DNA of 64,000 bases from an uncultured Clostridia bacterium (GTDB lineage Bacteria; Bacillota; Clostridia; Christensenellales; UBA1242). A model generated the notes under the pieces. It saw only the letters and a list, made by a program, of their open reading frames with translations, had not been told where the DNA came from and ran no database searches. This document shows, piece after piece, positions 3,362-62,700 of the stretch (positions within the stretch are counted from its first letter, which is position 1; each line of letters begins with the position of its first letter). The position numbers and the translations under genes were made by a program. Location: NCBI GenBank assembly GCA_947366545.1, contig CANBAL010000003.1, positions 55,492 through 119,491 of the forward strand, written 5' to 3'.

Positions 3362-3624
3362 AATACCTTTTACTACCTTTTAAATACTTAGTTAAGTTGC
3401 CGGTATACTTTTATAAATATTTAATCTCTCCCTTACTTCCTCATACTTGCAGATTTACGCCAAGTTGCTCCAACTATTTCCTAGGGGCAGTAAATGAATT
3501 TGGGGCTTTTAGAGGTTCCTATATCGGCTTTAAGCGTATTATGAGATGTACACCAAGAAATAAGTGCTATGGTTATGACCCAGTGCCAATTAATATTAAA
3601 GGAGACTGCCGATGGCTATTTTAA
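3358..3624 (+). CDS. yidD: Membrane protein insertion efficiency factor YidD
   Basis: ISPLLPHTCRFTPSCSNYFLGAV...RCTPRNKCYGYDPVP matches the YidD signature. ATGA overlap with the rnpA stop. Confidence 0.9.
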   Translation: MKYLLLPFKYLVKLPVYFYKYLISPLLPHTCRFTPSCSNYFLGAVNEFGAFRGSYIGFKRIMRCTPRNKCYGYDPVPINIKGDCRWLF

Positions 3625-4907: not shown

Positions 4908-4922
4908 TTAGGAGGGAGAAAA

Positions 4923-5690: not shown

Positions 5691-5696
5691 AATAAA

Positions 5697-5722
5697 AGCC
5701 CTAGCGTTGCTAGGACTTTTTT
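5697..5722. terminator. Bidirectional rho-independent terminator between jag (+) and the convergent paralog pair (-)
   Basis: CCTAGC-GTT-GCTAGG hairpin flanked by an A-run and a T-run (aaaagccctagcgttgctaggactttttt). Confidence 0.6.
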
Positions 5723-19151: not shown

Positions 19152-19226
19152 TGGCGCCCCAGGTAGGATTCGAACCTACGGCCTATCGGTTAACAGCCGA
19201 GTGCTCCACCACTGAGCTACTGAGGC
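19152..19226 (-). tRNA. tRNA-Asn (anticodon GTT), CCA encoded
   Basis: Reverse complement is GCCTCAGTAGCTCAGTGGTGGAGCACTCGGCTGTTAACCGATAGGCCGTAGGTTCGAATCCTACCTGGGGCGCCA. Acceptor GCCTCAG/CTGGGGC, anticodon loop CTGTTAA, T-arm GTAGG-TTCGAAT-CCTAC. Confidence 0.93.
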
Positions 19227-19423
19227 AAAATAAATTATGTGATGTGTCGCACTCGGCGTGTTAACCTTTATCGGTTTAATTCCGCTTATCCACCCTAAAA
19301 CCGACAAGTCGCTTTCAGGGGACCCGTGCGCTCCATACGCAGAACTAAAGTTCTTGGCGTTCAGCCTCATGCTCCACCACTGAGCTACTGAGGCAAATAC
19401 AATTAACTTTATCCTTAATTGTG
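19227..19423 (-). ncRNA. Structured 5' leader of tRNA-Asn. It carries a perfect copy of tRNA nt 1-25 (closed into its own hairpin) and an antisense copy of the anticodon arm
   Basis: 28-nt perfect direct repeat at 19202-19229 and 19370-19397. Inverted repeat 19249-19266 versus 19188-19204 (17 of 18). The promoter at 19430-19458 lies upstream of the whole unit. See findings. Confidence 0.5.
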
Positions 19424-30300: not shown

Positions 30301-30689
30301 ATAACGGAAATCTTGAAACTATAAATGGTACAAAAGATGCGTACTCAAGTTATATTGCGGGGGTAAGTTTCAAAAATGAAAACGCCACACTTTCATATTG
30401 CTATAATAATGGTGCAATAGCCCTCGGCATAAGCAGCACAACCAACTTTACTGGTGGTATAGCATATGTTATGAAAAGTGGTAGAGTGTCAGGACTTGTA
30501 GATACAAGTAAAAGCAAAATCATAAATACTTGTTTAGAGACTATAAGACAAGGTGATATGACATATGCAAGTAATGGCAATTTAAGTATCACCTCAAGTT
30601 CGCCTAGCGAAATTGAATTTGACTGCGGCGATGGCAAAACCATGAAGATTGTTTTAGTGGGGGAAGAATACAAAGCATCAATTATTTAG
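21330..30689 (+). CDS. Giant surface lipoprotein (3,119 aa): about 25-30 Fn3/Ig-like modules followed by a C-terminal GLUG-type beta-helix-like region
   Basis: Signal peptide with lipobox SLFAC and SD AAGAGG. Recurrent module starts occur about every 90-110 aa (G.L.W: GYLTWEN, GLLSWDE, RILSWQP, GVLSWTN, GVLTWRN, GELSWTV, GDLSWSI, GRLSWDE). C-terminal ~400 aa: GSKENPYRIANSEQFKNI.., then GLVGRNFGNITGCANNAEV / SGLVLAN / SGLVINN repeats. Confidence 0.9.
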   Translation: MRKKSLLMVLSVVLVSMFSLFACTDKTNSKVKFTQNEIVVSQNEPINFFDYLDLGDFQQTNINFTFSRNDLVKEEMNEYKACDIGGQTTVFANKNGKVLAETKLIVKYKFAPPEKIEISEDGYLTWENSYVYNGSEIKYASQYIVKINGEELPMPVIGNTFFIGEEQGEYLVQIKAKGIEEEYIDASEFSVEKEVCYRVVPKVENVEYLPSQSFGNSEGTITWGAANYFGQDARYNVYLGDIKILNDSEERKVSVDLNNFKAGQSTEIVIEAFIPNSDILSSRRLIPVTKLTNPRVKYQGGLLSWDEDLNAEQYRVFYVDKRDPSINGIINEGNNGSILNGLSHGIYEVQVQAVGMINGNGIFASSGVSNTIDCVKLENPEIAYSVEGSRVIINFTQDEYIKNYTIRYADQVVNFNTTAGLTKIIDMSGLEAGKYEFNIFATPTLSGGEILPWQSAEGESYSNVVNADVKVFTIYKHPAFESVTHSLDEYNNSILTFEAIDYADIYKVTINGEELLFEDVEPVYLENEGKYIVNLNLGDLSSKIVEKYNIVVEAFRKDENSISVSFQKEINLLPVVTAEGTENQENGLFKWQSASEYAKYVYEIYKLDGLYKLGSEELNNAISGITPLVGETENTVINNQINDFGYYYIRIYTRTRNQEVTDRFLDGDFNDENRYYQSIFTVQARLGTPKLTFGLNDETGTYAVTIPNVEFSDKYLISVLYNDETIEDTLFNSPAADRVYFFGTNQFDRAGNYTISVVANSGEEIPKDMEGEFIKILHPNSEISVVNVEKLANPTFTSEDIDQDLILTLKGPSHVGDIIISKNGERLNNEGDNTLDLSQISGEIVFQFIATDEDETDNNYYLDSNPTPYTFVRAARPTNLVHRKGNLIFECADEEYIDEYKVEITLVNTLNPNYTIVASAEKGKEFGLQDYIQNEVKINSRFKSEYEQWSKQKNGVIEIKVFAYKLSYVEVDGKTVFMMPSLAATTPTGEEKLSLVNLDAPEIIGYDTENRILSWQPVGSAIGVTTYDVFVGDERVETNTTGTTYNFNLKNIQFGTAKEITVVAYNDSYLSFASSKPITIKRLNSIQKVNVMQSGEVYFTLPLTGVERVECNGQTVNLNTNTGRVSFNLSDYESDGTANISLGVIAKNEGSDIYYENSLLSNFAFENISNKLIEYTNKGGVLSWTNVTPDFAGVEGNPVTYTITIHRDSPKLITGISENKYPLNSSDLYDLSIGNYSLDVTVVIPDYLIGGKNCKGYYGSLTSAQFSVEKLEVVSEEEISLSLKENDTLRISQRKVNADVIISWPNKWQGEVAFDITINDKSIKSLKEGDLSSDYSLTLSENKYLLTLKQSSYFVAGENNFEIQVNADDAISSNKTTKTINKFATVTKATIDENGLLTIEGEKGDYAISIIYNDKTVDKEISDNSVDIMDLLQLSQGRYTFEVVRFDSKNISLPSVGVYGSSGYRLQGIGSAEIKDTGNVEISLFNESEIDENIVFVAKRNDEVKEFEPQRKEESAIFNYSLMDFIKLFHIENEGKVIIQISVRKTGCVNADWKDVEYNYLARESGVTYTRGRNYNDDYIKITKVEDTTTAITFTLLLAGQTEQNAINRTYLASELEGFWITTEEGGYFTKEKPSNVSPEKIESCYGLSLNSLLREVEKGEVTIIISRIAHSDQGYTQYNSVEISQINKLSKVESVVLRDGVLTWRNSTESDVTGYYVYFYVQDGDALKQSFYKSTTTAFLDIKALTEVQAGTNYYLRVVAVSSKEKFIASNEANQVNAMKYRSPSKVQIQNGRIVFDEQAVLNSDFLTAIKTNYNTTNFVSTMATTTFTNLFHFSASSIRSARIRLQFKDGNRVYYATVNAYDLMPDLSQYTFKSSTTDPIDYLFAIEKEIDGISGSSEFKTNLQAMLDILKNVNGIARNGLLFDDFGRSIPSGNYTITLCQTGLDNIGTITSDYSQECKASVTEAPTIVFSTESQNNKTQYLITFKRVNIRHGLEENAVKANRYVFYLENAYDGKITTFIIENTAGDSGVEYFLKASVKISIPLVYNEADDTLTLNITEHLAALRIAKTTYNFTIYAEGNGYAINGKTDMKTLSLLDINPKNITLEDGELSWTVEDRYNASSTKVVLKQKNVAAITTQIEFVGTKAMLELANVGEYEYIILSLLGGYSNSSMSVDSDSYMIRNLYKLSDISVSASDDHFTIEDPNTLGGYYSIYNDVDGIGNPCTQAGKEYSPTQFKASEYFFRKLGSSGDFTEETLTEIDIEQGADHILAINGVSPIILSSNITSLKVAFLNSIESFNIENGDLSWSINKKNITLPEGHEIVYEVTACIKGDAITRKQTLYTAATTLDTLLFTELPDLSNDQKYVFEVRALAYKLTEDNGDIQTVEGKNYLKTQITIDDKVLLAGKEYTYSGGEGGITRAATPTGISTKYGRLSWDETGGLRYGFRTSVTQEVSLENLKYGDNPHKLFIYSYQKGVADKIKSKLQPVTFNGDSRIYKLPQVEKDDFVLLPREGFVEIDLSNLYTRKTISGTDAYYRVKLTVIVDESEYVAYSYKDANQNFSLYFKEEEFGAKDNVITVPSTYKSLGLKFQVVDNQGTTQRIMTLNGEETPYDITPLMWGKGDTVTWNNEKMQFEWTYTTDSADKIVPMYRVKVSYLVVDGLVKTVKTEEAEVFTNYYQPRRLGNITKIEVWVRKDANSIYSTEPIRYDPTKEEIYGQNGIVYNIFAGGDGSKENPYRIANSEQFKNIKYRNNQEIKYYFQQTADIDFSIKGFGLNEAFYGEYNGYFNGVKTLNLTLSPSAVATENGGSLSLGFKFATSARQNVDVTFGGFGGLFKEIAAGGVVKNLSLSLNFNGAPLKQNALMTGLALINYGKIENINIISVTSSYTISSGSSNNTLAQAGLVGRNFGNITGCANNAEVNVRLNSPYANNVIVSGLVLANEKDQSIKGIISDSYNNGNITVTNTKKNSMIWISGLVINNTSEILRSGNNGNLETINGTKDAYSSYIAGVSFKNENATLSYCYNNGAIALGISSTTNFTGGIAYVMKSGRVSGLVDTSKSKIINTCLETIRQGDMTYASNGNLSITSSSPSEIEFDCGDGKTMKIVLVGEEYKASII

Positions 30690-40105: not shown

Positions 40106-40180
40106 TGGAGCGAAAGACGGGATTCGAACCCGCGTTCCTCAGCTTGGGAAGCTGATGCCATACCACTAGGCCACTTTCGC
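40106..40180 (-). tRNA. tRNA-Gly (anticodon CCC), CCA encoded
   Basis: Reverse complement is GCGAAAGTGGCCTAGTGGTATGGCATCAGCTTCCCAAGCTGAGGAACGCGGGTTCGAATCCCGTCTTTCGCTCCA. Acceptor GCGAAAG/CTTTCGC, anticodon loop TTCCCAA, discriminator U as in bacterial tRNA-Gly. Confidence 0.92.
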
Positions 40181-41736: not shown

Positions 41737-44700
41737 ATGAGAAAGAAATTGATGAAAGGTTTGTATGCTTTGGCTGTTATGCTGATGAGCGTTGGTGCTG
41801 TTGCCATGGTGCCAAGTTTGTCTGCAGAACCAGATGCGAGGGTAGAGGAAAGTGTTGAAACCTCTGCTACGCCAAGGGTGAGTACATACGCCGCGGAAGG
41901 TACCGAGGCGAGTGAGCCAACAGGCAACTGGGCAAATCAGTTTGATGCAAGTAGAGCGGAAAGTTCCACTCCTTTTGGGAACCCTGTTTCCCGCCCAGAC
42001 GGAAATTATTATCAAATTACTAACGCCGAGGACTTGGCGTTACTTTCATATCTTGTAGCCACCGCAACAAGCCCCACTTGGTTAAGTGCAAAATATGAAC
42101 TCACCGCTGACATCGACCTGGCTGGCTCCTACTGGACACCTATTGGTGTGTCACGATCATATCCTTTCTTTGGAACTTTTAATGGTAATTTCCACACTAT
42201 TAAGAACATTGTCATTGAAGGCTCGTCAGCCATTGCCGAAGGTGGCTTGTTTGGATATTTATCAGAAAATGCCTTTGTTTGCAACCTTACCGTTGATGGT
42301 TTTAGAAGTTATTTGGATGATAGCGATGTAGCATCATCAGGTGCAGTTGCGGGTTATGCTATTGGTGCCACCATTGCAAATGTGTATGCAAAAAATACAA
42401 ACGGGTTTTATGGAATTGCAGATTCCACTAATTGTATGATCTATCGTGGATGGAGTTCAAATGGCACATCAAATGACACATCTTTTTCTACAGTAGAAAG
42501 TACTCTGACTATCAATGTGGAATCTTCTAATACCTACGGCTACGCCATCATGTTCAACTTTAATGGCGGTGCAGTATACAAATATCAATCTAAGACAAGT
42601 CTCGGCTCTCTTCAATATAGCAGATATGGTGTGCTTATTAATTCCAGCGGTGCCGTTCAAACTGGCAAGGCTACCTATGGACCATTCCTTGGCACAAGGG
42701 CTGCTGTTATGTCTAATGCAAGCGGCGTGTTTGCAATCAAGGTGGGCAACGAATTTACAGTAAAGGCTGGCAGCGCCACCCTTACTTCAAGGAATTTGGG
42801 ATCCAACTTAACCGCCCTTGCTGGCACAGGTTATATCGCTACTTTAAACTGGACTCCAAAGAAATATACTTTAAATGCTTACTATAATTATTCACCTGAT
42901 ACTCCTATCGCGACAGAATTACAAAATGACGCAGTTTTCCCTACATCATTTAGTCGCGTGGGTTATACATTGGCAGGCAGATATACCAACGCTGCTTTAA
43001 CAACGGCACTAAGTGGACTTAATTTTGTAGGTGACACTGTTGCTCTCTCTGGCACTACTTATTCAATCTATTTAAAATGGAATCCATTAACTAATATTGG
43101 TTATAATGTGCATATGTTGTTAGACGGGCAATCACCTTCTGGAGAAAGCGGAAATGTTAACGCTTCTATTGCGTATGATAATTTGAAGATATTGGAAGGT
43201 AGTGGTACAGAAAACTTGGCAACCAACTCTGGTGATACAAAGGGTTTGAACTTTAACCTAGAAAATCACACCTCAAGTAATAGCGTAACAATTTCATTCG
43301 ATTTAAATTATGGCTTTGAATTTGGTGCTGGCACAAATTCTTCCGTGCTTTCAACTAGCCAAGTATTCAATAATGCCGGTGTATACCATGTGTTCGCAGC
43401 TGGCAGATATGACACTAAGGCGCCAGTTACTTCAGTGGTTGCAGTTAGTGGACAGAAGCGTACAATAACACTAAATAATATAGTTGGAAGTGGTGACATT
43501 TATATTGTTTTTAAAAGAGCAGAAGTAAAAGTTGCACTTGAAACAAGCAATGTAACAGTTGCTTTAACAAATAATAGCTCTTCTACCTCCTTGAATGCCG
43601 CAAAAACTGAACTTACCACAAAAGTAGGTGATGTATTTACTTTAACTTTTGATATTGATACAACAAAAGGTGCAAATCTATTTATCACCAATTATGGTGT
43701 TGTAGGTTTTAATAGATATGTAAATGCGGTAGATACAAGGACTTCTTTTGGTGGTGGTAGTTATGTAACAAAGTATACCGTATCGACAATAACAAACGAT
43801 TTCTTTAAAACAGATTCAGCAACTGGCAACAAAATTACTGCAATAGCCCGCGGGCTTGAATATACAGTAAATCTTACCATGACCCGTACTGAAAGTTATA
43901 CTGACAGCAGTAAATATGCTTTAGCATATGCTGCTCACAGTGTTGATCAAAACGGAACTTCTGGCAATAATACTCATAGAATTGATTTGGCTTCTGATGG
44001 TATGGGCAGAGTTTATATGTTATCTAACGATTACTATACTTTTGATAGTCTTTCACTAGTAACACAACATACAAACAGCGGAAATGATGGTACAAGCATA
44101 CCTATCACTATCGGCTCTGATAAACAAACAATTTTAAGTAATGGTTATGTTCAATATGCCTATGACTTTAAGGTTGAAGTACCAGACAACTTAGGGGAAG
44201 AAATACCTGAATATTACTTTACTTTTACTGCGAAGCCACAAGAATACTCTGTTGAAACAGAGATATATATAGATGGCGTAGAGGCTACAGAGGAGCAACT
44301 AACCGCTTATGGTTTAACAAGCACCCTTGGTAATGGAGTTGCAAAGCCTAATGATACCACTACAATCACCTTTAATCTTGGTGCAAATGGCACAAAATAT
44401 CTTGTTAACACTCCTGAAATCACATGCCAAAAAGCAAGTGAGAAAATAGGAAACACAGAAATAGATGTGCCTGGCGCTGTAGGGACAATGAGTGGTAACA
44501 CTTACACCTTTGGTACGAGAGATACTATTGTGCGAGCAGATTATACAACTAAGAAAATTACCCTTGATTTAAGTGCCACCGCAGTGGTAAAAGACTTGAA
44601 CGGTAAGAGTGGTGTGAATGGCGCTCTTGACGGCTTCACATATAATAAGGATAGCCTTGGTGCAACAGTAGGATATGACGCAGGATTTAACATTACTGTT

Positions 44701-47700
44701 GAAGGTGGGGCAAACGAGGGTAATATCAATATGATTACAGGGTATTACCTTGTAGGTTGGTATCTACAAAATGGAGACATCATACTCGATACTAATCTTG
44801 AAAATATTATTAATACTAATGCCGTACGAGATTTAGTTGCTGCAAATGAAGGCGAGACTTTAAGTTTGTCTGTACAGCCTGTAATTCAACAAAAAACAAT
44901 AAAGTTAAGCTTTGGTGAAGGAGCGGATGAACATAATCTAATTACACCAAAGAATGGCGATGCCGATAAAACAACCTATACATTTACTTACTATCATGCA
45001 CAAGAAACTTTTGATACAACAGCGGCATTCAGTTTGGCTGATATGGCGGGTCTCTTCCAAAAGATTGGTACCAGTGCTTTAAAATCTTGGCGAATGACAG
45101 AAAAAGATAATGTTTATGCTTTTAATGCTACCTCTGAATATATTGCTGCTTGGGATGATATTTATGGTGAGGGAAATGAAACCACCTTTAACTTTACACC
45201 AAATGAATGGACAAATATTGTATATACCGTTGCAATTGATGCAAGCAATTCAATTAGTGTAAGTTTAGGCAATACAATTTACCTTGTTTATGATAAAGCT
45301 GGCAATGCCACCTATCATAATGGCGAACTTAGTGTAGGTCTTACCGCTCGTGAAGGCTATACAGCAAATAAATTTAGTTTTAATGGTAATGGAAATACCG
45401 CAACAATATTAGGTAATTTATCAGGCCAAGAAAATGCATTTACGCTTTCTGAAGAAAATATTGTTGCTTTCCTTGCAAGTGAATTTCATTACCAAGCGGG
45501 CACTGCATTTACAATTACAACCAACTGGGAACCTGTAGTTTACAAGGTATTTATAAGTTATACAAATTACGAAAACTTTGCAACAAACGATAACATTCTG
45601 AAAGAAGAAGGTGAGAACGGCAGATATTATATCGAAGTGCCATATCAAACAGCAATGGCAGGACTTGCAGATTTTGAAACTGCACTCACAAGGTCAGGTT
45701 ATATTGTTTCTGGCTGGAGAAATATTACTGATAATGATACTATAACTATATATAATAAGAATAGTACATATGATAAGACGCATGATATTACAGTTAAAGC
45801 AATTTGGACTGTAGATACTGAAAATTCATATATCAATATCAATCTTGATGGAGATAAATCTGTATATTATAATGGCAAGGAGCAAACCCTTGGCACTGCC
45901 TCTATATTGCCTGCACTTGAGGATGGAAAACTTTATCTAAGCAATGGTGAAAAGGTAAATAAAGGTTATTGGGCTAAGGTTGATAACGACGGTAATATAC
46001 TTGAAAAATTTGCTGATAACCAGTTGGCACTTAGCCTTACTAATGTATCACAAAGCGGAAAGTATGTTTACGTTATCGAAGTTGTATCTGATACAAGTGT
46101 ATTGATTAGTGAAGGCTACACAGCAAAGAGTACTCCAATCACTATTGAAATCAAGAAAAATACCGTAGTGGTTGTTGGCTCAGCCCTTGAATCTTACTAT
46201 ACAGGCACCGAGAAATTTATTGCAACAGATACCAGCGTAGTGGGCGGACTATATTTCAAATATGACGCTGACGGCAATGAACTTAATATCACTGCTCCAA
46301 CAGTAGCATACGAAATTTCAAGCGACATTTTAACAGTAAAAGGCTTTAGACTTTTAAGCAGCAATGGTTATGCTGTAAGCGATAATGTAGAAATAGATTA
46401 TATTCTTGATACTCATAATTATGAAAACAACTTTACAAGTTTTGATAACTTTGGCACAGCAGAAGGTTATACTAGAGTTACTGGACAGTTCTATAACAAT
46501 TCTTATGACAAGGTTACGGTAACAAACGCTTATTTCTTAAGAGTAGAGGGTAATAAAATTGTACAAACCACCCTCGCTATAGATGTAAATGGTAGAGGCT
46601 TCTATATTGAAGGAATGCGTCATCAGCTTAAGTTGTCTTCTGATAAAATCAGCGTTTTACCAGACAAACTTATTTTAGATAAGTTAATCGCACTTCAACT
46701 TCTAAATGGTGGCGAAACCGCTGCGGCCGATACTTTTGCACTTACTCTCAGCGTTGAAACAAAGACTTCAAATGCTGACAATTATGATGATGTGTCTAAG
46801 TTTAACATTGATTATAGTATTAAATTAAATAACCAAGAGGTTAAAAACAATTTTGCAATAACAGTGACTGGCAACTATGTTATTGAAGATACAAACGCTT
46901 CAAATTCCTACTCATACAACTATCAAGTAGGTTATCTCACAGCAAATGAGGGAATGCTTCAAAGCATTACCACAAGTTATGCTGGTACTGAATACTATAA
47001 TATAAAGATAACACAAATTAAGATTGGAAGCGTAACAGTAAGTGGCGACCAAATTGGCGAGTTCTATATCTATACAACAGATGCAGGTGAGATGCTTGTA
47101 ACAATAGCGGGAAATGGAACAAAATCTCTTGATATCGTTGTACGACAAGGGTACGATATTACATTTACGGTTACTCCAGTGGCAGTACAAACCGATGTAA
47201 CATCTTCAAATCTTGTTTACTTAGGCCTTAATTCAAGAAATCTGTTGCCTGAAGATAGAGACGAACTTATTACCAATTTCACTGAAGTAAAAGACTTAGA
47301 TCAGCAAGTGGTGCTTTCAGGCTCTACTGGTGAAAGCAATGGTCAATATTATACACTTTTCACAGATGTAAAATATATCACCTTAGATAAGGGAAATGAT
47401 GATGCAAATAAGCAAATTAGTTTCTTCCTTTCAGCAGGCGATACTAGGGTCATGGCTAATCCAACATGGAAAGGCTTTGAGTTTACAGGATGGCAAATTC
47501 CAAATGGCAGCGGTGTAACAGCAGAGGACAATGGCGCCAATGGTTACAATATTCAAACAGTAGCCGGTAAGGCAGCAGTCTTAACTGCACAGTGGACACT
47601 ACTTGCTCCAACCGTAACTACACCTGCAACAAAGGAAATAGTTAAAAACGCAAGCGAGAGCGCACAAACAATCACTTTCACAGAAGTTGCTGGCACTATT

Positions 47701-50700
47701 ACTAATGAAAATAATGCAATCACATATACATATAGATGGTTTAAAGGTGAGACTTTAATTTCTGGACAGACTGGCAGAGATCTTAGTCTTAGTAAGGTAA
47801 CAACAAATGACGAGGGAAGTTATACTCTTCAAATTCTTGCTACTTACAATGGACAAACCGCAGAAGTTAATGTACCTTTCACATTAAAGGTTACTACTGT
47901 TAAGATTATTTCTTTCACTCTTGATAGAACTAGTGATACTTACAAGAACGAGGCTTTGTCACTTAACGCAAACCTCAATTTCAGCGTAGGTGCACCTCAA
48001 AACCTTAATATACTTAATAAACTTGGAAATGGTACGATTAAATTCACTATATCTTACAAGCAAAGTGCAGATAGTGAGGCAGTGGCCGTTTCTGAAATCA
48101 AGAATGCTGGAATTTATACTATCACACTTGTTCTTGATACTACAATTTATGAGTTTGATACTGATGTCGCAAACAGCCAAATTTTCACAGTAGGGCAATT
48201 TGAATACACTCTCAAAGAGAGCGATGTAAGCCTTTCTAAGGTGTTTGGTGAGTCCGACCCTAAACTTCAAACTATCTTAAACTTAAACCGTGAAGATGTC
48301 ACAGTTGAGTTTATTCGTGGGGCTGGTGAAGCAGTTGGTAATTATGCATTATCTAAAAAGTCTGTAAATAACAGCAATTATAATATTATAGTTCCTGCAA
48401 ACACATGGTTTAAGATTAATAAAACAACTTCAAATCTTTACCTATCCTTCTCTGGCAATTTGACTATGGTTTATAATGGCAAGACACCTGCAAGCATAGA
48501 GACTATTTACGATAATGGCTGGAAGGCTATTGTAAAAGACTCAGACAACAATGAACTTGCTCGCGTAAATATGAATCTTAAATCAGGAAAGGATGAAGAA
48601 AGCACATCTCCAGTGACAGTAAATCTTGACACTGCATTTAATGGGTTTATAATTACAATTAAAGAAATCAGCAAAAATGTTGGCGAATATGACCTTGAAG
48701 TTGGTGGCACCTCCTCTACCTATGCTGGCATATTCTTTGAAGGTACTGCACCTAAATTTACAATTACTAAGGCGACAATAGTTGTTAAGAATGTAGTTAA
48801 GACATTTGATGAAGCTGCAACCTTCACTTGGAACTCATTAGCCACTGATAATACTACAACTCTTACCGCAGAAAATCTTGTTGCGGGAGAGGATGTAACT
48901 ATATCTGGTAGTATGCTTGGCGTAACTGTAGGCACATATGGTGTGTCTAGTCTCACAGTCTCTGGTAAAGACTCTGGCAACTATAATGTGACTTGCAGCG
49001 AAAACGGAAGAATTAAGGTGTCCGATGCTACAATCGCATTAACAAATGGAACTGAAAACTTTAATTATGGACAAATAAAAGAATCAACTTTAAATTCACC
49101 AAGCACAATGAGAGATTTATTACAACTCGCTCTCACTGCAAATGGTAATGCTTCCGATGCATTCAATGCTGGTTATGTTACAATCAGCAGCGTAACAATA
49201 GCATCAGCTACATATTCAAAGGGCGGTAACTTAAATGTACTGCCAGAGGGTGGTAAGTATACAGTATCTATCACACTTACTTCTTCTAACTATACAAAAG
49301 CGAACGAAAACTTTAATGTTCAGATAACAATCAATACTATCACCATAGACCTAAGTGGAAACACAGTAACTAAGCAGTATGACGGAACTAACGCATTACC
49401 ACCTCTTACATGGAACATGGCAGGGCTACTCAGTGGAGACCAAGTAACTGTAACAGGTAACTACAATAGCACAGCAATTGGTACTGGCATCGCTCTTACT
49501 CTTAACCTTACTGGTGCTGATGCTGCCAACTATACAATTAAAACTCCTACACCTACTGGTAGCATTACTTCTAAAGAGTTTAAGTTTACACCTAACTATG
49601 CTACTATCGACTTTGCAAATGACGGAGTAACTAATCCAACAGGCGAAGAATTTACAGTTACCTACAACGGTAATTCTGCAACCTTCCTCTCTGCTATTGC
49701 AAGCCATTATGCAACCAGACAAGGATACACTCAAACAGGTTGGACATATGGTACAGATAACACTGACATTAAAACAGACTTCGATACCTTCCTCAGCGCA
49801 GTAGTAGAGGCAAATAAGAAAGGCACTCTTACACTTAACGCTGTATGGCAGATAGAAAAGAGAGAGGTTGTTGTTAATGTAAATAACGCTACCGTTAAAG
49901 TAGGGGATACTACTCTCACAAGCGGCACCGCTATCGAAGTGGATTACTTCTCTTCTATCACTCTTAATATTACTGGTAATGAGGGATATAAATATGTGAG
50001 AGAATCTCACACCGGCACCGCTACTCTTACTGAAACCGGTAAAAATACCCTTAACGCTACTGTAAATGTATCTAACATTACAAGCGCAGTTACAATCTCC
50101 CTCGTAATGGAAGAAATTACAGTAACCTTTAAAGCAACTAAGAACGATACTAATCTTCTTAATACAACCGTTACTGGCTGGGCTAGTGATATTACCCTTA
50201 ATTACTCCGCACTTAATGACCAAGTAGACAAACTTCTTACTACTATGACCGCTACCGCTGGTACATACACTCAAACTGCTTGGACTTTGGGTGCTAAGAA
50301 TGTTGCTCTTACAGATAACCTCCTTGCTTTAGTAAAAGAGGTTAAAGGTACTCTTACTGAGGATACAGTAGTAGAAACTCTTGCTCCTGTTTGGACTGGC
50401 GTTGCATACACTATCACATTCAATAAGAATGATGAGAACGCAACCTTCGTAACTGGCAGTGAGACAATAGACGCTACCTATGGCGAGCCTCTTACCGGCT
50501 TCCCAACAGTAGCTAAGACAGGTATGAATAATATCTGGAATACTAAGGCTGACGGCACAGGCACAACCTATGCAGAAGGAAATAAACTTACAACAAGAGG
50601 AACTTTAAACGGAGATAAATATTCTCTTACCCTCTATGCGATCTGGTCTAATGCTGATGTTGATGTAACTATCAACCCTAACATTAAGTCAGAAGGCAAT

Positions 50701-53700
50701 AACACACATATTACTAGGGTGACAGTAGATGGCACAGCTATCACAGCACCTACTACAAATACACTTAACTTTGCTAGTCAAAGAGTAATAGTAGTATCCC
50801 TTGACCCTGGTTATGAACTTGATACTACCGAAACTAAACTTACCGCTGGTAAAGGTCAAGTGAAGATTGAAGGCAATACAATCACTCTTAGTGCAGTGTC
50901 AGAACCTTCTACCTTAAATATCGTTGCTAAAGCAAAAACATATACTGTTACACTTAACGCAACCTATGCTACAGTAAATCCAACCTCTATTCAAGTAGTA
51001 TTTGATAGCACAATGACTAATCTTCCTACTCCAACAAGAGATGGATATACCTTTAAATCATGGACAGATAGCGAGGGTAATGAGTATAGCACAACTACTA
51101 CATATACAGTAGCTGGTGATATAACCCTCAACGCTACTTGGACAGTAAAGACAGATAAATATGTAACTGCAAATATAGGCACAGACTTTGAAGCATTCTA
51201 CAATGGTGCAAACCAACAAGTGGCTTCTGCTACTCTTACTGCAGGTGGTAAAACAATTACTGTCGGCGAAACACTTACAAACGGCGAAAAAGTTACCTCT
51301 CTCTACTATGAAGTTAAGAATGGCGAGACCTACTCTAAAGTAGCTGACGGCGCTACCCTTACCCTTAAAGATGTAACTAATACTTCTTACCGCTTGGCTG
51401 TTGTAATTGAAGACCTTCTCACCTCTACATCTTACACAGCATACCTTGCTGAAAAGAATGTGAATATAAAGGCAGCTGCTATTGAAGTTACAGGAGAAAA
51501 CCTTGTAAGCTACTACACTGGCACAAATGCTTTTGTAGGAACTGATACTGCAACTCAAGGCACTCTTCAATATGTAAACGGCGAAACCCCAGTAACTGAA
51601 ATTACAATTTCAAGAGTTGTATTTGAAGGCACTACATTCAATGTGGCCACCGGACTTACCGTAAGATATTACCTTAATATAGAAAAAGACTTACTCGCAA
51701 ATTACTCTGATATTAGTGGCAATGAAACTGACGGCTACTACATTACAGTAACAGGCGCTTCAATCATCGCTACTCCACTCACAATTACAGCAAAAGGTCA
51801 AGGCTTTGAAACAGGCTCTAAACATATAGTAAATAACTATGATGTTACAACTGATACTGATGTTTCTCTAACAGGCTTCAATGTAACAATCACTCTTACA
51901 ACAACAGGAACTACTGGACCTCAAACATCATTCACAGAAGCCGACTTCACTGTAATGCGTGGAACAGAAGATGTAACTAGCAACTTTACTCATACTCTTG
52001 CTGGTATATACACAATTCTTTCAAAAGATAATACTTATCAGTATACCTTTGATGTTAAATATCTTACTTCATCAAATGGCAGCGTATCTCTTGAGAAAAC
52101 AACAGGCTATACAATTAAACTCTCCGCTCTTAAAGTTGGAGAAAACAATGTATACATTGGTGAAGATAGTTACTTTAACTACACCATTGGTGATACCCCT
52201 GTATTTACCCTCTCTGGTAATAACACAGATAAGGTTGTACTTGTTGTAAACGACGACTACACATTAACCTTTAATGCAACCATTAATGGAGCATTCACTA
52301 ATGCTACCTTCTTAACATTTACAAGCGATACAGAAGTAGAGTCACTTAAATCTACTCTCGCTACTCTCACTGCACTCAACGATAAGACAATACCTCTCAC
52401 TGGTACAACTTCTCAAACTCTTACCGCAGTTGTAACCGATGTTAAGGTTGTTACTCTTAACTATGGTGCATGCGAACAAGCCCCTACTACTGTCTACGCT
52501 AAGATAGGTGAGGGTACTACAATCACTCCTCCTACTTGGACAGGATTTACCCTTAAAGGTTGGTCAACAGTAAATGGTGTTACTATCTCTGGTGCAACAC
52601 TTAGTGTTCCTACCACCGCTAACATCCTTCCTGTTACCTTAACTGCTGAATGGGAAATCACTAAACCTACTACTTCTTTGAATAATCAAGAGATTACCAT
52701 TAACGCAAGTGAAGGTAATGAAAATATCAACCTTGCTAGTGTAATAGGGGTTGTAACTGATGCAACAAGCGACCTTACATACACCTACTCTTGGTACAAC
52801 GCTTCTAACGAACTTCTTGCTTCGGGTGAAACCCTTACCGTTAAGGCTGACACCGATGCAGTCGGAGACTACTATGTAGTTGTTACCGCATCTAAAGCAG
52901 GACTTACTTCAGTAAATTCTGATCACATTGCTTTCACAATTAAAGTAACTAAGGCAACTTTAAATGTAACAATGGATACCGCTGGCTCCTTCGAGTACAA
53001 CAACACGAACAGAACAAGCGATATCACATTCACAGTTAATGGTGAAAAGAAAACACTTGCTTCACTTCTTACTGCTGGTAATGTATACTTAACAATTAGT
53101 AACGGAACAACTGATGTAATCGAGATTAAGAATGTGGGTACTTACACAATCTCTGTAAATGTAAATGATAAGATTTACAATACAGTTACAGATACCTTTA
53201 CTGTAAAAGTAACTGAGTACGATTACGAAATCAAAGACACCGATGTTGCTCATTTATGGAAATATGTTGGTGCAAGTGATCCTAATCTTGAAGCTACTCT
53301 TACATTAAATGGTGAAACACTTACCGTTTACTTCACAAGAGAGACAGGGGAAACTGCAGGCACTTACAAGCTTTCAATAGATACTACTAAGACTAACTAC
53401 TCTAACTACAACCTCTCTATTGATGAAAACAATAAGTACTTTGAAGTTAAAGCTTCTACAAATGTTCTAGTAATATCTTTAGCAAGCGAACTTAAAAAGA
53501 CTTATGATAAAGAAACTGTATCACTTTCAACTAGATATGAAGGTGGTGTATGGAAACTTGTAGTAACAAGTGGAACAGACGAGATTATCTCTGACCTTAC
53601 CTTCCAGACACTTAATGGTGACACTCTTACTCCATTTACTTCTAATGAAAATACACTTGCTGGTGCAGTATTCTCACTTAAGAACCCAAGTGTAAACGCT

Positions 53701-56700
53701 GGAAGTTATGAGATAGAAGTAAAGGGTGGTACAAACTATCCAAATGCTGCCTTTAACACTACTACTTACTTTACAATAGACCAAAAAGGTTTAGTAGTAA
53801 CAAAGGTAACTAAAGTATTCGATAGAACTAACACTTTTGATAACTCTAATGTAACTTACACAGGCGTAGTTGCTGGTGATAGCATCACACTTACTGGTAC
53901 CTTTGATAGTGAACATGCTGGTGACAGAACTGCAACCTTTACTATCAACGGAGACGCTAAGGCTAACTACAAAGTAGTAGAAGGCACTGGCTATACTGCA
54001 ACAATTACTACTTCTAGTGAAGCAGTAGACCTTACAGTAACTAAGACAACCTTTAACTATGGCGAGATTACTGATGGCCTTAACAAAGATCAACTCCTTG
54101 CTCTCCTTGGTACCCTTACTCTTACTATAGGCTCTGGCTATACTAACGCTATCGCTGACGGTTATGTTACAATTTCTAATGTTTCTATCACATCAGCTAC
54201 ATATTCAAAGGGCGGTAACTTAAATGTACTGCCAGAGGGTGGTAAGTATACAGTATCTATCACACTTACTTCTTCTAACTATACAAAAGCGAACGAAAAC
54301 TTTAATGTTCAGATAACAATCAATACTATCACCATAGACCTAAGTGGAAACACAGTAACTAAGCAGTATGACGGAACTAACGCATTACCACCTCTTACAT
54401 GGAACATGGCAGGGCTACTCAGTGGAGACCAAGTAACTGTAACAGGTAACTACAATAGCACAGCAATTGGTACTGGCATCGCTCTTACTCTTAACCTTAC
54501 TGGTGCTGATGCTGCCAACTATACAATTAAAACTCCTACACCTACTGGTAGCATTACTTCTAAAGAGTTTAAGTTTACACCTAACTATGCTACTATCGAC
54601 TTTGCAAATGACGGAGTAACTAATCCAACAGGCGAAGAATTTACAGTTACCTACAACGGTAATTCTGCAACCTTCCTCTCTGCTATTGCAAGCCATTATG
54701 CAACCAGACAAGGATACACTCAAACAGGTTGGACATATGGTACAGATAACACTGACATTAAAACAGACTTCGATACCTTCCTCAGCGCAGTAGTAGAGGC
54801 AAATAAGAAAGGCACTCTTACACTTAACGCTGTATGGCAGATAGAAAAGAGAGAGGTTGTTGTTAATGTAAATAACGCTACCGTTAAAGTAGGGGATACT
54901 ACTCTCACAAGCGGCACCGCTATCGAAGTGGATTACTTCTCTTCTATCACTCTTAATATTACTGGTAATGAGGGATATAAATATGTGAGAGAATCTCACA
55001 CCGGCACCGCTACTCTTACTGAAACCGGTAAAAATACCCTTAACGCTACTGTAAATGTATCTAACATTACAAGCGCAGTTACAATCTCCCTCGTAATGGA
55101 AGAAATTACAGTAACCTTTAAAGCAACTAAGAACGATACTAATCTTCTTAATACAACCGTTACTGGCTGGGCTAGTGATATTACCCTTAATTACTCCGCA
55201 CTTAATGACCAAGTAGACAAACTTCTTACTACTATGACCGCTACCGCTGGTACATACACTCAAACTGCTTGGACTTTGGGTGCTAAGAATGTTGCTCTTA
55301 CAGATAACCTCCTTGCTTTAGTAAAAGAGGTTAAAGGTACTCTTACTGAGGATACAGTAGTAGAAACTCTTGCTCCTGTTTGGACTGGCGTTGCATACAC
55401 TATCACATTCAATAAGAATGATGAGAACGCAACCTTCGTAACTGGCAGTGAGACAATAGACGCTACCTATGGCGAGCCTCTTACCGGCTTCCCAACAGTA
55501 GCTAAGACAGGTATGAATAATATCTGGAATACTAAGGCTGACGGCACAGGCACAACCTATGCAGAAGGAAATAAACTTACAACAAGAGGAACTTTAAACG
55601 GAGATAAATATTCTCTTACCCTCTATGCGATCTGGTCTAATGCTGATGTTGATGTAACTATCAACCCTAACATTAAGTCAGAAGGCAATAACACACATAT
55701 TACTAGGGTGACAGTAGATGGCACAGCTATCACAGCACCTACTACAAATACACTTAACTTTGCTAGTCAAAGAGTAATAGTAGTATCCCTTGACCCTGGT
55801 TATGAACTTGATACTACCGAAACTAAACTTACCGCTGGTAAAGGTCAAGTGAAGATTGAAGGCAATACAATCACTCTTAGTGCAGTGTCAGAACCTTCTA
55901 CCTTAAATATCGTTGCTAAAGCAAAAACATATACTGTTACACTTAACGCAACCTATGCTACAGTAAATCCAACCTCTATTCAAGTAGTATTTGATAGCAC
56001 AATGACTAATCTTCCTACTCCAACAAGAGATGGATATACCTTTAAATCATGGACAGATAGCGAGGGTAATGAGTATAGCACAACTACTACATATACAGTA
56101 GCTGGTGATATAACCCTCAACGCTACTTGGACAGTAAAGACAGATAAATATGTAACTGCAAATATAGGCACAGACTTTGAAGCATTCTACAATGGTGCAA
56201 ACCAACAAGTGGCTTCTGCTACTCTTACTGCAGGTGGTAAAACAATTACTGTCGGCGAAACACTTACAAACGGCGAAAAAGTTACCTCTCTCTACTATGA
56301 AGTTAAGAATGGCGAGACCTACTCTAAAGTAGCTGACGGCGCTACCCTTACCCTTAAAGATGTAACTAATACTTCTTACCGCTTGGCTGTTGTAATTGAA
56401 GACCTTCTCACCTCTACATCTTACACAGCATACCTTGCTGAAAAGAATGTGAATATAAAGGCAGCTGCTATTGAAGTTACAGGAGAAAACCTTGTAAGCT
56501 ACTACACTGGCACAAATGCTTTTGTAGGAACTGATACTGCAACTCAAGGCACTCTTCAATATGTAAACGGCGAAACCCCAGTAACTGAAATTACAATTTC
56601 AAGAGTTGTATTTGAAGGCACTACATTCAATGTGGCCACCGGACTTACCGTAAGATATTACCTTAATATAGAAAAAGACTTACTCGCAAATTACTCTGAT

Positions 56701-59700
56701 ATTAGTGGCAATGAAACTGACGGCTACTACATTACAGTAACAGGCGCTTCAATCATCGCTACTCCACTCACAATTACAGCAAAAGGTCAAGGCTTTGAAA
56801 CAGGCTCTAAACATATAGTAAATAACTATGATGTTACAACTGATACTGATGTTTCTCTAACAGGCTTCAATGTAACAATCACTCTTACAACAACAGGAAC
56901 TACTGGACCTCAAACATCATTCACAGAAGCCGACTTCACTGTAATGCGTGGAACAGAAGATGTAACTAGCAACTTTACTCATACTCTTGCTGGTATATAC
57001 ACAATTCTTTCAAAAGATAATACTTATCAGTATACCTTTGATGTTAAATATCTTACTTCATCAAATGGCAGCGTATCTCTTGAGAAAACAACAGGCTATA
57101 CAATTAAACTCTCCGCTCTTAAAGTTGGAGAAAACAATGTATACATTGGTGAAGATAGTTACTTTAACTACACCATTGGTGATACCCCTGTATTTACCCT
57201 CTCTGGTAATAACACAGATAAGGTTGTACTTGTTGTAAACGACGACTACACATTAACCTTTAATGCAACCATTAATGGAGCATTCACTAATGCTACCTTC
57301 TTAACATTTACAAGCGATACAGAAGTAGAGTCACTTAAATCTACTCTCGCTACTCTCACTGCACTCAACGATAAGACAATACCTCTCACTGGTACAACTT
57401 CTCAAACTCTTACCGCAGTTGTAACCGATGTTAAGGTTGTTACTCTTAACTATGGTGCATGCGAACAAGCCCCTACTACTGTCTACGCTAAGATAGGTGA
57501 GGGTACTACAATCACTCCTCCTACTTGGACAGGATTTACCCTTAAAGGTTGGTCAACAGTAAATGGTGTTACTATCTCTGGTGCAACACTTAGTGTTCCT
57601 ACCACCGCTAACATCCTTCCTGTTACCTTAACTGCTGAATGGGAAATCACTAAACCTACTACTTCTTTGAATAATCAAGAGATTACCATTAACGCAAGTG
57701 AAGGTAATGAAAATATCAACCTTGCTAGTGTAATAGGGGTTGTAACTGATGCAACAAGCGACCTTACATACACCTACTCTTGGTACAACGCTTCTAACGA
57801 ACTTCTTGCTTCGGGTGAAACCCTTACCGTTAAGGCTGACACCGATGCAGTCGGAGACTACTATGTAGTTGTTACCGCATCTAAAGCAGGACTTACTTCA
57901 GTAAATTCTGATCACATTGCTTTCACAATTAAAGTAACTAAGGCAACTTTAAATGTAACAATGGATACCGCTGGCTCCTTCGAGTACAACAACACGAACA
58001 GAACAAGCGATATCACATTCACAGTTAATGGTGAAAAGAAAACACTTGCTTCACTTCTTACTGCTGGTAATGTATACTTAACAATTAGTAACGGAACAAC
58101 TGATGTAATCGAGATTAAGAATGTGGGTACTTACACAATCTCTGTAAATGTAAATGATAAGATTTACAATACAGTTACAGATACCTTTACTGTAAAAGTA
58201 ACTGAGTACGATTACGAAATCAAAGACACCGATGTTGCTCATTTATGGAAATATGTTGGTGCAAGTGATCCTAATCTTGAAGCTACTCTTACATTAAATG
58301 GTGAAACACTTACCGTTTACTTCACAAGAGAGACAGGGGAAACTGCAGGCACTTACAAGCTTTCAATAGATACTACTAAGACTAACTACTCTAACTACAA
58401 CCTCTCTATTGATGAAAACAATAAGTACTTTGAAGTTAAAGCTTCTACAAATGTTCTAGTAATATCTTTAGCAAGCGAACTTAAAAAGACTTATGATAAA
58501 GAAACTGTATCACTTTCAACTAGATATGAAGGTGGTGTATGGAAACTTGTAGTAACAAGTGGAACAGACGAGATTATCTCTGACCTTACCTTCCAGACAC
58601 TTAATGGTGACACTCTTACTCCATTTACTTCTAATGAAAATACACTTGCTGGTGCAGTATTCTCACTTAAGAACCCAAGTGTAAACGCTGGAAGTTATGA
58701 GATAGAAGTAAAGGGTGGTACAAACTATCCAAATGCTGCCTTTAACACTACTACTTACTTTACAATAGACCAAAAAGGTTTAGTAGTAACAAAGGTAACT
58801 AAAGTATTCGATAGAACTAACACTTTTGATAACTCTAATGTAACTTACACAGGCGTAGTTGCTGGTGATAGCATCACACTTACTGGTACCTTTGATAGTG
58901 AACATGCTGGTGACAGAACTGCAACCTTTACTATCAACGGAGACGCTAAGGCTAACTACAAAGTAGTAGAAGGCACTGGCTATACTGCAACAATTACTAC
59001 TTCTAGTGAAGCAGTAGACCTTACAGTAACTAAGACAACCTTTAACTATGGCGAGATTACTGATGGCCTTAACAAAGACCAACTCCTTGCTCTCCTTGGT
59101 GACTTTACTCTTACTATCGGCTCTGGCTATACTAACGCTATCGCTGACGGCTATGTTACAATTTCTAATGTAACCCTTGATAACCCTCAGTACTCTTCAT
59201 CTCATCACCTTAAAGTAGGCAGTTATATTATCACTATTGCTCTTGATTCATCAGATTACTCTACCGCTGATATCTTCTCTAAACCTTTCAATATCACTGT
59301 TAATACTATTAATATCGATTTGAGTAGTACAGTGGTAGACAAAGTGTACGACAACACAACTGATATTATAAATGCTACTTGGGACTTGAGTGCTGTACTT
59401 GCGGGAGATAATGTATCAGTAAGTGCAAGTTATCAAGACAAGACCGTTGGAGAGAACAAAACACTTAATGTTGAATTTACTGGATTGGATGCAGGAAACT
59501 ATCAAATCTCAAATAAGCCAACCGGAAGAATTACTGCAACTTCAGTAAGACTTGTATTCAACAATACCGCACTTGCTGACTTTGTAAACGATAAAGAGAT
59601 TTACGCATCTAAGACTTATGCAGATATCACTTATCCAACCACCGACGCGGCTGGCACTCTTGGACTTCTTACTAAGCCAACAAGAGAAGGTTATCATGTG

Positions 59701-62700
59701 ACAAACTGGGCTTATGAAGTAAGTACAGGACGCTACGAAGCAATAACCGAGGCAAACATAATAGCAGTTCTTGACAAAGCGTATGGAAATGGTAAAGAAC
59801 TTACTATCTACGCTGAGTGGGAAAAGAATGATATTATAATAAGCATCACCTCTGTACTTGGTGAAGTTGCTAAAGCGGGAGATGTGGCAGCAGACACCTA
59901 TACAATTAAATACTATGATGACATTACCTTCACAGTTTTAGGAAATGTAGGTTACAAATTAGATGATGTAACTATCACTTCGGGCACTATTGTAGGTGGA
60001 CTTGAGAAATCTGGAGTAGGAACAAGAAAGGACGGTACATTCACCTTACATAAAGTTGCTTCAGATATCGCTTTAACAGTAGAATACTTGGAGATAAAAA
60101 TCACTGTAAATATTGACAAGAATATTCCACAGTACACTCAAGAGGTGGGTGAGGCATGGACAAGCGAAACCTTTGTATACTCAATGGACGCAAAACTTGC
60201 TGAACTTTTACCTGAGATTAAAGTACTTAGCGGAACATACACTCAAACTAAGTGGACTGCAACATTTGGCACCGATATTGATGTGGCGCTTGATGACAGC
60301 AGACTTCTTAAAGACATAATCGGCGAAGAGATAAACAGTGACGAAGACGCCGTTATCACCTTTAAGGCAGAGTGGGCAGGTGTAAATTACACAATAACAT
60401 TTAATAAAAACGATGTTGATGCAACTATAGAAGGCGATACGACAATAAATGTTGTTTATGGTCAATCTATGGCAGACAAGACATTCCCTACTGTTACAAA
60501 GATTGGTATGAAAAACACTTGGAACACAAGCGCAAATGGTAGTGGAAAATATTACACAAATGAAGACATCTTCCAAACTAGAGACGAAACAAGTGAAAGC
60601 AATTTTGCTGTAACATTATATGCTATCTGGGCTAATGAAGATTACACCTTCACAGTTGAGATAGACGACAGCCATGTTAAGTCAGTATTGTCTGGCGGAG
60701 TAGAAGTAACCAATGGAAACTTCACACTTCGATATGGCACTTCAATAAGTTTTGTAGTTACTGTTGACGAAGGTTACTTAATAGCATGCAACGAGGCTGA
60801 GTTTGCTGGCGTTGCCACTATTGAAAAACTTGGAAAGACATTAAAGATTACAAATCTTTCAGTAAATGATAAAGTATTCAAAATCTTTGCAATAGCACAA
60901 GAAAATACTATGACAGTGAATACAAATCTCTCAACACTTACAAATGTAACGGTGGGAGGCGAGGTGGTTACTGCAACTGGAAATACTTTCAAAGCAGACA
61001 CTGGCAAAGAAATTGTACTTACATTTACAGCAGAAAAGGGTTATACCTTTGATAAAGATTCACTTGTAAATGTACAAGGCGGAATCATTGTAAGAGAGGA
61101 AACAGACGGTGTCCTTAAAATAACTTGGACTGGATTTACTTCTGATTCTATAATCACTGTTACACCTTCAGCAGTAGCTAATGTGGTAACATTAAAAGAT
61201 AGCTCTAATTATGTAAGCTCACTTTACATCAACTCTACATTACTTCCTGCAAGCGGTGCAACATACAACGCAATGACAGGCAGTGAACTTACAGTATCTG
61301 TACTCCTTAAGTATGGCTTTAAGAACATAACGCTTAACCTAGTAAATGATTTAAGTGAGATTATTACTAGTGAAAACATAGTAATTACTAAACTTGGAGA
61401 AGAGACTTGGGATGAAAGTGCAAAAGCATACAGACAATCCTTTACAATAACTGGATTTGTAGATGCGTTTAATATTAAAGTAAGTGCAGAAGCAAGAGAT
61501 TACAATTTTGCGATTTCTTCTGGCAATACCGCAATGGGTAGTGTAACTCCAACAACTGCTGCTTTAAAATTTGGTGAAAGCTTAAATCTTACTGCAACAG
61601 TAAACAGTGGTTTTGCATTCATTGGCTGGTTTGTAGGTGAAAAGGCTATTTCACTTGAAAGTGAATATACATTTGTACTTAATGAATCAAACAAGACTTA
61701 TCTTGAGTCGGGAGACCCTATTGAAATAGTTGCTAACTTTGACTACTCTGAAGCTGAATTTATAATAAGCACAGAGGGTAATGGTAGTCTAGTTTACAAG
61801 ATAGGTGACGGCAACGAAATAGTCATCAACCAAAATGGTGAAAACAAGTCAATAGTTTCCTTCAACACATTACTTACTATTAAAACAGTACCTAACAGAG
61901 GATACGCACCTGAGTTTAAGTTCTATAGTGTTGACGGAAGTCAAATGACTTACACTAATTACACTTATGATGAAAGTACAGGCATCATGGTAATCCGTGC
62001 ACTTGCTGACGGGCCTAGACATATTAAGGTTGAATATGTTGCATGCAAGGCATCTATTAAAGTAGAAGCGGGCGTACAAATCAACTACCAGATGAGTTAT
62101 GGCACCGATATCGGCGGAACAATTCACTGGTCAGATGAAAATGGTAATCTTAAAACTGTAACGGGTGGCATTGATGGCGTTTCATATACAATCGAGACGG
62201 CTACAGGAAACAAAGAGTACTTTGTAGTAAATAGAAATTCTGGATTCTCATTCACAATGTCTTCTAAGAATGCTGGTGTGATTATCAACAGATTAAACAA
62301 AGACGGCAAGGTGATTTTCGAAGTTGACGGAATTGTCGGCGATATTGAGGTTGAGGCAGTCTTTACTGCGGAAGACAACAACATTGATGTATACTTTGAA
62401 GACGAAAATCATGAAAGAGTACTTGCTGGTAAGATTTCAGTTTCAACATCTGGCTATGTTGTAGCATCCGGAAACGACTCCTCTTCAGTTAAAATAAACG
62501 CTTTAACTGGTCAGAGCGTAAGCATGGAGGTGTCTACAAATCTTACCTTTAGTTTTGATGAAGAAAGAGAAAGAATTTTTGATGCAAATGATGCAATTAA
62601 GGATAAAGTTATAGTAGGAAACCCTACAGATGACAATTTCGCATTGGGTTATACTAGAAAGGTAAGCGTAACTATTACGGATATTGATAGCAATGGTTAC

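Follow-up and report, generated by a model that had tools for sequence, protein, structure and literature searches.

How a bacterial gene can come to carry the same block of nearly 5 kb twice in a row, without a break in its reading frame, is the question raised by the stretch of DNA analysed here (64,000 nucleotides of contig CANBAL010000003.1 from an uncultured Clostridia bacterium, positions 55,492 to 119,491; hereafter the window). The repeat lies in a giant gene that appears to encode a fibrillar surface protein, whose stalk is made of long super-repeats that we call A, B and C. We consider it likely that the 1,663-codon, multi-domain block B of this stalk has truly been duplicated in tandem, in this lineage specifically, and is present in at least two copies.

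The duplicated block and its single-copy relatives

We compared the window with itself at a fixed offset of 4,989 nt, and a repeat search reported the same pair (Tandem Repeats Finder is blind to a 5-kb period). The two units are adjacent and head-to-tail, and 4,977 of their 4,989 positions are identical, including a core of 4,888 bp without any mismatch (49202-54089 = 54191-59078). Identity at this offset was 0.99-1.00 from 49201 to around 54100 and 0.22-0.43 elsewhere in the 40-59 kb region. An exact match of 4.9 kb is beyond chance, and the repeat is therefore genuine in the sequence. The core is followed by a tail of 93 bp with six mismatches (54090, 54112, 54113, 54115, 54129 and 54162; 6.5% divergence), three of them synonymous and the other three confined to two adjacent codons (TL versus DF). 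Of the eight final positions (54183-54190 versus 59172-59179), six differ, and similarity stops at 59171. As the period equals 3 x 1,663 nt (1,663 codons) and frame 1 has no stop between 41686 and the end of the window, the reading frame is kept through both copies. An earlier note on this DNA had claimed such an in-frame 4,989-bp duplication with an exact 4,888-bp core, the six tail mismatches and the end of similarity at 59171; the offset comparison returned all of these coordinates.

The same note had reported antisense open reading frames (ORFs) duplicated at +4,989, with a sole residue change at 54090/59079. This was reproduced, the ORFs at 53791-54093 and 58780-59082 being one residue apart (I/V) owing to T at 54090 versus C at 59079. 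Considered as genes, these antisense ORFs were rejected, as they have no Pfam match and lie inside a conserved sense ORF of 22 kb; they are probably not genes. With respect to composition, threonine accounts for 19.5% of the B block (49202-59179) versus 11-12% of the other protein parts (41737-49201 and 59180-63999). The GC skew is -0.10 to -0.14 over 50-58 kb, within a gene that is otherwise positively skewed, and this negative skew follows from the threonine richness of the B block; the third-position skew is -0.53.

To which state does the rest of the family belong? An exhaustive HMMER search of protein cluster representatives, using the first 1,200 aa of B as query, yielded approximately 17 representatives of 6,079-6,706 aa that aligned along about 1,000 aa and are 25-57% identical to the window's protein by chunk. 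In none of them did self-comparison give an internal identity above 37%. We then mapped the window's protein in 250-aa chunks onto the best representative, P0127 (6,183 aa). Residues 65-4250 correspond to P0127 6-4399, residues 4252-5750 jump back to P0127 2537-4238, and colinearity resumes with residues 5751-7438 on P0127 4239-5932. Since the second copy (B2) maps again onto the P0127 segment of the first (B1), B2 is an extra copy of a segment that P0127 holds once. Likewise, the modules of about 200 aa that mark the block borders number two per orthologue, 1,860-2,000 aa apart, versus three in the window's protein. A syntenic orthologue lies beside an 87%-identical trpS on a Joint Genome Institute (JGI) contig. 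It is called as 6,230 aa, with its stop about 800 bp from the contig end, and over its first 3,209 aa it runs colinear to the window's protein at about 50% identity; its single-B state is judged from the gene length and these 3,209 aa. Copy number in relatives was a check named beforehand, and its outcome was a single B in the approximately 17 representatives and in the syntenic orthologue. Because every relative examined has one B where the window's gene has two, the duplication is, on these sequence comparisons, derived and lineage-specific.

The super-repeats themselves are older. A (to residue 2500), B and C (from residue 5827) share 25-35% protein identity at offsets of approximately 1,660-1,790 aa, with B1 and B2 identical; this relationship came from chunked BLAST, the whole-protein self-BLAST having given the diagonal alone. 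A word-indexed protein search for relatives of B returned six weak Flg_new-type matches and missed the true family, and pattern scans with the B block gave no match in GTDB genomes or in JGI metagenomes. Word-indexed negatives for long, compositionally biased proteins are thus untrustworthy, about 17 colinear members of some 6,000 residues having been missed. The whole family of 6.1-6.7 thousand residues appears to be uncharacterised. The features of the locus are collected in Table 1.

Table 1. Coordinates of the repeat, its borders and the surrounding gene (window positions).
Feature	Position	Strand	Remarks
Copy 1 (B1)	49202..54190	+	residues ~2501-4163 counted from 41686
Copy 2 (B2)	54191..59179	+	residues ~4164-5826; same P0127 segment as B1
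Identical core, copy 1	49202..54089	+	4,888 bp, 0 mismatches
Identical core, copy 2	54191..59078	+	counterpart of 49202-54089
Diverged tail, copy 1	54090..54182	+	6 mismatches/93 bp vs 59079-59171
Diverged tail, copy 2	59079..59171	+	counterpart of 54090-54182
Border module 1 (A/B1), ~200 aa	48943..49545	+	beta-sandwich with F.YG...GYVTIS, then YDG, E=8e-12
Border module 2 (B1/B2), hybrid	53932..54534	+	YDG E=1.5e-11; AlphaFold2 pLDDT 93.8
Border module 3 (B2/C)	58921..59523	+	YDG E=4e-11; module alignment
G-Y-V-T-I codons GGTTATGTTACAAT	49171..49184	+	identical at junction 54160-54173
B2/C equivalent GGCTATGTTACAAT	59149-59162	+	shares 11 nt TATGTTACAAT with A/B1
Junction-specific 8 nt TTCTATCA	54183..54190	+	single occurrence in window
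Antisense shadow ORF, 282 aa	49426..50274	-	repeated at 54415-55263
Further antisense ORF pairs	51058-51570/56047-56559; 53791-54093/58780-59082	-	offset +4,989
Giant surface-protein gene, 5' part	41737..63999	+	7,421 codons in window; extends beyond window

The join between the two copies and how it may have arisen

The claim that a motif recurs at the unit borders held well, as GYVTIS occurs exactly three times in the giant protein, once per border and nowhere else. The module at the B1/B2 border is a hybrid, in which the end of B supplies the N-terminal half and the start of B the C-terminal half. When the three modules of the window were aligned with 19 orthologous modules, no gap appeared across the join, which was in register. 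AlphaFold2 predicted two beta-rich domains for the 201-aa junction piece, with a mean predicted local distance difference test (pLDDT) score of 93.8. In this model the first domain has the join within its strand 80-87. Given that the join lies inside a strand of one domain, a hybrid domain was made rather than two whole domains being abutted. A fold search of the PDB with the junction module gave nothing significant (best E 0.02). The join is in frame and, according to the model, in structural register, with an intact hybrid domain predicted.

At the nucleotide level, the left border (A/B1) reads GGTTATGTTACAAT CAGCAGCGTAACAATAG CATCAGC..., the junction (B1/B2) GGTTATGTTACAAT TTCTAATGT TTCTATCA CATCAGC... 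and the right border (B2/C) GGCTATGTTACAAT TTCTAATGT AACCCTTG ATAACC..., and the junction can be recognised by a spanning sequence such as ...ACAATTTCTAATGTTTCTATCACATCAGCTAC.... The two parental borders have a longest exact match of 11 nt (TATGTTACAAT), and the join sits outside this stretch. A 14-nt identity upstream of B1 (GGTTATGTTACAAT), which was not in the earlier note, is followed by 17 nt of which 6 positions match. The Gly codon is GGT at the junction (54162) and at the left border (49173), and GGC at the right border (59151). The eight junction-specific nucleotides TTCTATCA are unlike both the left flank AACAATAG (49194-49201) and the right border AACCCTTG (59172-59179), and no donor for them was found within the window.

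Read in order, the junction is a mosaic of right-like, left-like, right-like, unique and left-like segments, and given this alternation it is not the product of a single crossover. Two simple placements of the join were tried and rejected, as a join in the 14-mer and one at GTAAC (5 nt, common to both borders) would each need at least five substitutions to give the observed junction. Nine nucleotides (TCTATCACA, 54184-54192) that extend from the unique block two bases into B recur approximately 55 nt downstream in the start of B (49249-49257 and 54238-54246; ...GTATCTATCACACTT...), and TTCTA occurs twice at the junction, 9 nt apart. These recurrences could be templated filler, or chance.

What kind of recombination could have produced this arrangement? 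Unequal homologous recombination between neighbouring super-repeats had been proposed, but protein identity among A, B and C is only 25-35%, and blastn (word 9, E<=1e-3) showed no DNA similarity between them. The lack of DNA homology for pairing excludes an origin of a RecA type between super-repeats; nor does a RecA-type origin at the shared border agree with a longest match of 11 nt and a join outside it. Duplications are known to arise by illegitimate recombination at 0-5 bp of identity and to be lost later at a high rate (PMC9997567). We therefore favour a scenario in which the first join would have been made by RecA-independent illegitimate or short-homology recombination, or by template switching, between sister chromosomes, at parental sites with at most 11-14 nt in common and in neighbouring blocks without DNA homology. 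Selection would then pass in-frame, in-register, foldable products alone, and the neat position of the join would be explained by the failure of all other products under selection.

A single event of this type would not be enough. The earlier note took the zero divergence of the core as a sign of a recent event or of homogenisation, and the 4,888 identical bp uphold this reading. The difference between core and tail, however (0/4888 versus 6/93, Fisher p=3.6e-11), means that more than one process was at work, and a second step would be needed to give an identical core together with a diverged 93-bp tail and an 8-nt block unlike either flank. This step might have consisted of (a) the homogenisation, by conversion or unequal exchange up to 54089/59078, of an older duplicate that had diverged by about 6%, (b) the recombination of a patch from a diverged allele across the B2/C border or the junction, which could have preceded or followed a clean join, or (c) clustered substitutions and short filler arising at the join itself. 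Half of the six differences in the tail are synonymous, which points slightly more to real evolutionary divergence, as in (a) or (b), than to errors of repair, although six sites are too few for a firm choice.

Alternative explanations, copy number and length variation

Could the second copy be a product of the assembly? In this case the genome would hold one B, and the assembler would have made the other by traversing a loop, through a chimeric read or by placing two strain haplotypes in tandem. The suspicion is understandable: assemblers handle an exact 4.9-kb repeat poorly, the sequencing technology is unspecified, related contigs break close to the giant gene, and the perfection of the cores is itself suspicious. 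No read from a genome with one B, however, can contain a junction from the end of B to its start, and the 8-nt block at this junction is absent from the flanks and from the rest of the window, so that a graph chimera is excluded as its source. The 11 nt shared by the borders are below any usual k and too short for a false graph loop. Moreover, the six sites that tell the two B ends apart mean that the data contained two versions of this end, and the join keeps the frame at a structurally equivalent residue of two homologous domains, which a random mis-join would achieve in about 1/1000 cases by a rough estimate. In view of the unique junction 8-mer and the in-frame, in-register join, we judge this alternative, which the earlier note had also raised, to be very unlikely.

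It is less easy to say how many copies there are. If the genome carried an array of three or more, with the assembly showing the minimal path of A, B, junction, B and C, any number of units made of core, first tail and junction would give an identical short-read graph, for which one junction type and two tail types suffice; interior variants would be merged as bubbles, while end variants no more than 33 nt apart survive as branches. Nothing in the sequence favours more than two copies, though, and the count of two is reliable if the contig stems from accurate long reads, which leaves a longer array as an unlikely alternative. Acquisition of the second copy from another strain or species by horizontal transfer, of which the diverged 101 bp at one end could be the edge, is extremely unlikely, because 4,888 bp match the resident copy without a difference, whereas identity to the nearest orthologous genes is about 50% at the protein level and 64-68% at the DNA level, and because the head-to-tail, in-register placement is what a duplication predicts.

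The remaining alternative concerns the role of the repeat. Under this explanation, the locus would be a device of the type found in Periscope proteins, in which B is held as a high-identity array by ongoing conversion or unequal exchange and the switching of stalk length is adaptive. An identical core with diverged edges could be read as a footprint of concerted evolution in what is a surface stalk protein; the edges of arrays escape homogenisation. There are, however, just two copies, the left edge is without a divergence gradient, and adjacent blocks elsewhere in the gene have no identity at the DNA level. Furthermore, the approximately 17 divergent representatives and the syntenic orthologue have a single B and a narrow length range, in a comparison that is cross-species only, the window's species being represented by a single genome. 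We consider such a device improbable. Its boldest form, in which this stalk family of 6,100-6,700 aa changes length in quanta of 1,663 aa (~60-70 nm) with copies kept identical by conversion, a 'super-repeat Periscope' mode of surface variation of which the contig would show the two-copy state, seems to us quite improbable.

The preferred explanation is hence a young tandem duplication, against which several points have to be weighed. The junction is not the simple chimera of the present flanks that a one-step recent event predicts, and each of (a), (b) and (c) is possible as the second step. Copy number and exact core identity rest on a single assembly, and small differences in the core could have been merged by the assembler. 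The species is represented once in the protein collection (its trpS cluster has 1 member, on 1 contig of 120,377 bp). Finally, the C-terminal anchor and the total length of the protein are drawn from orthologues, as the gene leaves the window, and neither an adhesive nor another functional head domain was found in the N-terminal 488 aa with Pfam. With regard to merging, the surviving differences are all within 33 nt of each other and adjoin unique sequence, where an assembler would retain them, and the two-phase pattern of divergence stands because an interior divergence of about 6% would keep the copies apart in the assembly.

As for the consequences, the extra block would lengthen the stalk by about a quarter. 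With 16-17 added beta-sandwich domains of ~100 aa and ~4 nm each, we estimate, from the model and typical Ig-like dimensions, a gain of roughly 60-70 nm. A perfect direct repeat of 4.9 kb should be an efficient RecA substrate, and one-copy and three-copy segregants would be expected in the population, since perfect direct repeats are lost and amplified by RecA at appreciable rates. The proposal that the repeat is a large substrate for gain and loss is upheld by what is known of bacterial duplications (PMC9997567). The further suggestion of habitual or antigenic length variation fared less well, as all of the ~17 divergent representatives and the syntenic orthologue have one B within 6,079-6,706 aa. 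Because the family is otherwise length-invariant, we prefer a young duplication over a length-switching system: the repeat is probably a young, transient polymorphism and not a dedicated length-variation system, and it was possibly selected locally.

The giant gene, its genomic setting and comparison with known systems

The giant gene most likely starts at ATG 41737, which has an AGGAG ribosome-binding site upstream, and its product begins with the signal-peptide-like N-terminus MRKKLMKGLYALAVMLMSVGAVAMVPSLSAE. Pfam matches in the protein comprise YDG (E 1e-14), Flg_new and Flg_new_2, with MBG_2 just below the cut-off (24.2 versus 25 bits); in PMC9210967, Flg_new, MBG and YDG count among the domains that build the stalks of fibrillar adhesins. 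The N-terminal 488 aa gave no Pfam match at E<=1, and an NCBIfam search matched nothing in the protein. The C-terminus of orthologues consists of a hydrophobic helix and, after it, a basic tail (RRRKKK-type), and by homology the giant protein is probably anchored by a C-terminal transmembrane helix as well. Since P0127 runs 251 aa past the point aligned to the window end, a total length of about 7,670 aa is predicted from this orthologue.

In orthologues P0127-P0151, a related motif region (...AEDLA.L.Y.V...W.PIG...F.G.F.GN.HTI...) of roughly 70-150 aa is found at both protein ends, just past the signal peptide and just ahead of the C-terminal transmembrane helix, with self-matches at offsets of approximately 6,000-6,450 aa. 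The region has no Pfam match, and its N-terminal copy in the window lies at about 41950-42400.

The neighbouring genes encode pseudouridine synthase, BipA, DnaB, GltX and TrpS, plus transfer RNAs (tRNAs), at a G+C content of 34-41%, and given these housekeeping functions the window is chromosomal DNA. The nearest TrpS sequences, at 95% and 79% identity, come from metagenome-assembled genomes (MAGs) of uncultured gut Clostridia/Eubacteriales. The flanking DNA of the nearest genomes is just 77-90% identical, and these genomes are therefore from other species. Neither TrpS nor BipA of the window had an exact match when looked up. The MAG contigs of the nearest relatives (CANBAX010000009.1 for L001/L004 and CAOQRA010000013.1 for L003) end in or just upstream of trpS, next to the expected start of the giant gene, a hint that breaks at this locus are regular in short-read assemblies. 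Another very large ORF (21330-30689, + strand; 3,119 aa) starts like a lipoprotein (...LFAC), and its only domain match, to fn3, is weak; the ORF is without sequence relation to the giant gene and has a counterpart of 1,732 aa in the corresponding place in the 95% relative (L001). The tRNA genes at 19155-19226 (-) and 40109-40180 (-) have equal Rfam scores (70.5 bits), and a 44-nt direct repeat near the former (19194-19237 and 19362-19405) is 86% identical and 168 nt apart, a sign that a few similar tRNA genes are clustered here.

If our explanation is correct, the locus is a clean natural example of the growth of a giant modular surface protein, in which a whole multi-domain block was added in one step. 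Growth by block addition demands a join in frame and in structural register, and the ancient A/B/C super-repeats of the family probably arose by the same route. The locus is also likely to be heterogeneous in copy number within the population, and short-read assemblies are prone to break or collapse there. We are fairly confident that the event is of an ordinary kind, a young tandem duplication that lengthens a stalk, with no new mechanism; what sets it apart are the size of the unit, the mid-domain join in register and the conserved, uncharacterised family in which it occurred.

In-frame duplications of multi-domain super-repeats are familiar from other giant modular proteins, namely the triplicate region of nebulin and the super-repeats of titin. 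There, too, the copies are near-identical and prone to change in number, but these are eukaryotic, exon-based muscle proteins with other recombination machinery. In terms of origin, a close match is the spontaneous tandem duplication of bacteria (Roth/Andersson/Reams-Neidle model; PMC9997567), which has the same head-to-tail repeat, a novel join sequence at little or no identity, as seen here, and a later status as an unstable RecA substrate with a high rate of loss, as would be expected here too. The window's duplication differs in that it is intragenic, in frame and in register, altering protein architecture rather than gene dosage, and in the extra substitutions at the join and in its 100-bp neighbourhood.

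With the fibrillar adhesins of Monzon and Bateman (PMC9210967), the giant protein shares its very long, probably secreted form, biased composition and the stalk domains Flg_new, YDG and MBG, a YDG match being found at each border (4e-11 to 8e-12). A known adhesive domain was found neither by Pfam in the N-terminal 488 aa (E<=1) nor by NCBIfam, and the motif region at the N-terminus and ahead of the C-terminal anchor of family members is a further difference. Lastly, Periscope proteins (SasG/Aap, Rib/alpha C and the SHIRT domains of Sgo_0707; Whelan et al. 2021, PMC8201768) are surface-anchored stalks, as the giant protein probably is, encoded by near-identical DNA units, and it is the very high DNA identity of their repeats that permits intragenic recombination and hence a change in stalk length (PMC8201768). 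Such identity is found here as well, at 4,977/4,989 positions between two copies of a multi-domain unit. However, this unit is a 1,663-aa block of many domains and not a single domain of 70-130 aa, there are two copies only, and the remaining stalk consists of diverged domains without DNA identity. Periscope proteins are defined by repeat numbers that vary from strain to strain; here, the number of repeats is invariant across the family in the cross-species comparison, with the window's gene as the sole variant, and the anchor is by homology a C-terminal transmembrane helix rather than LPXTG. By analogy, the locus may work like the first step of a Periscope-type array.

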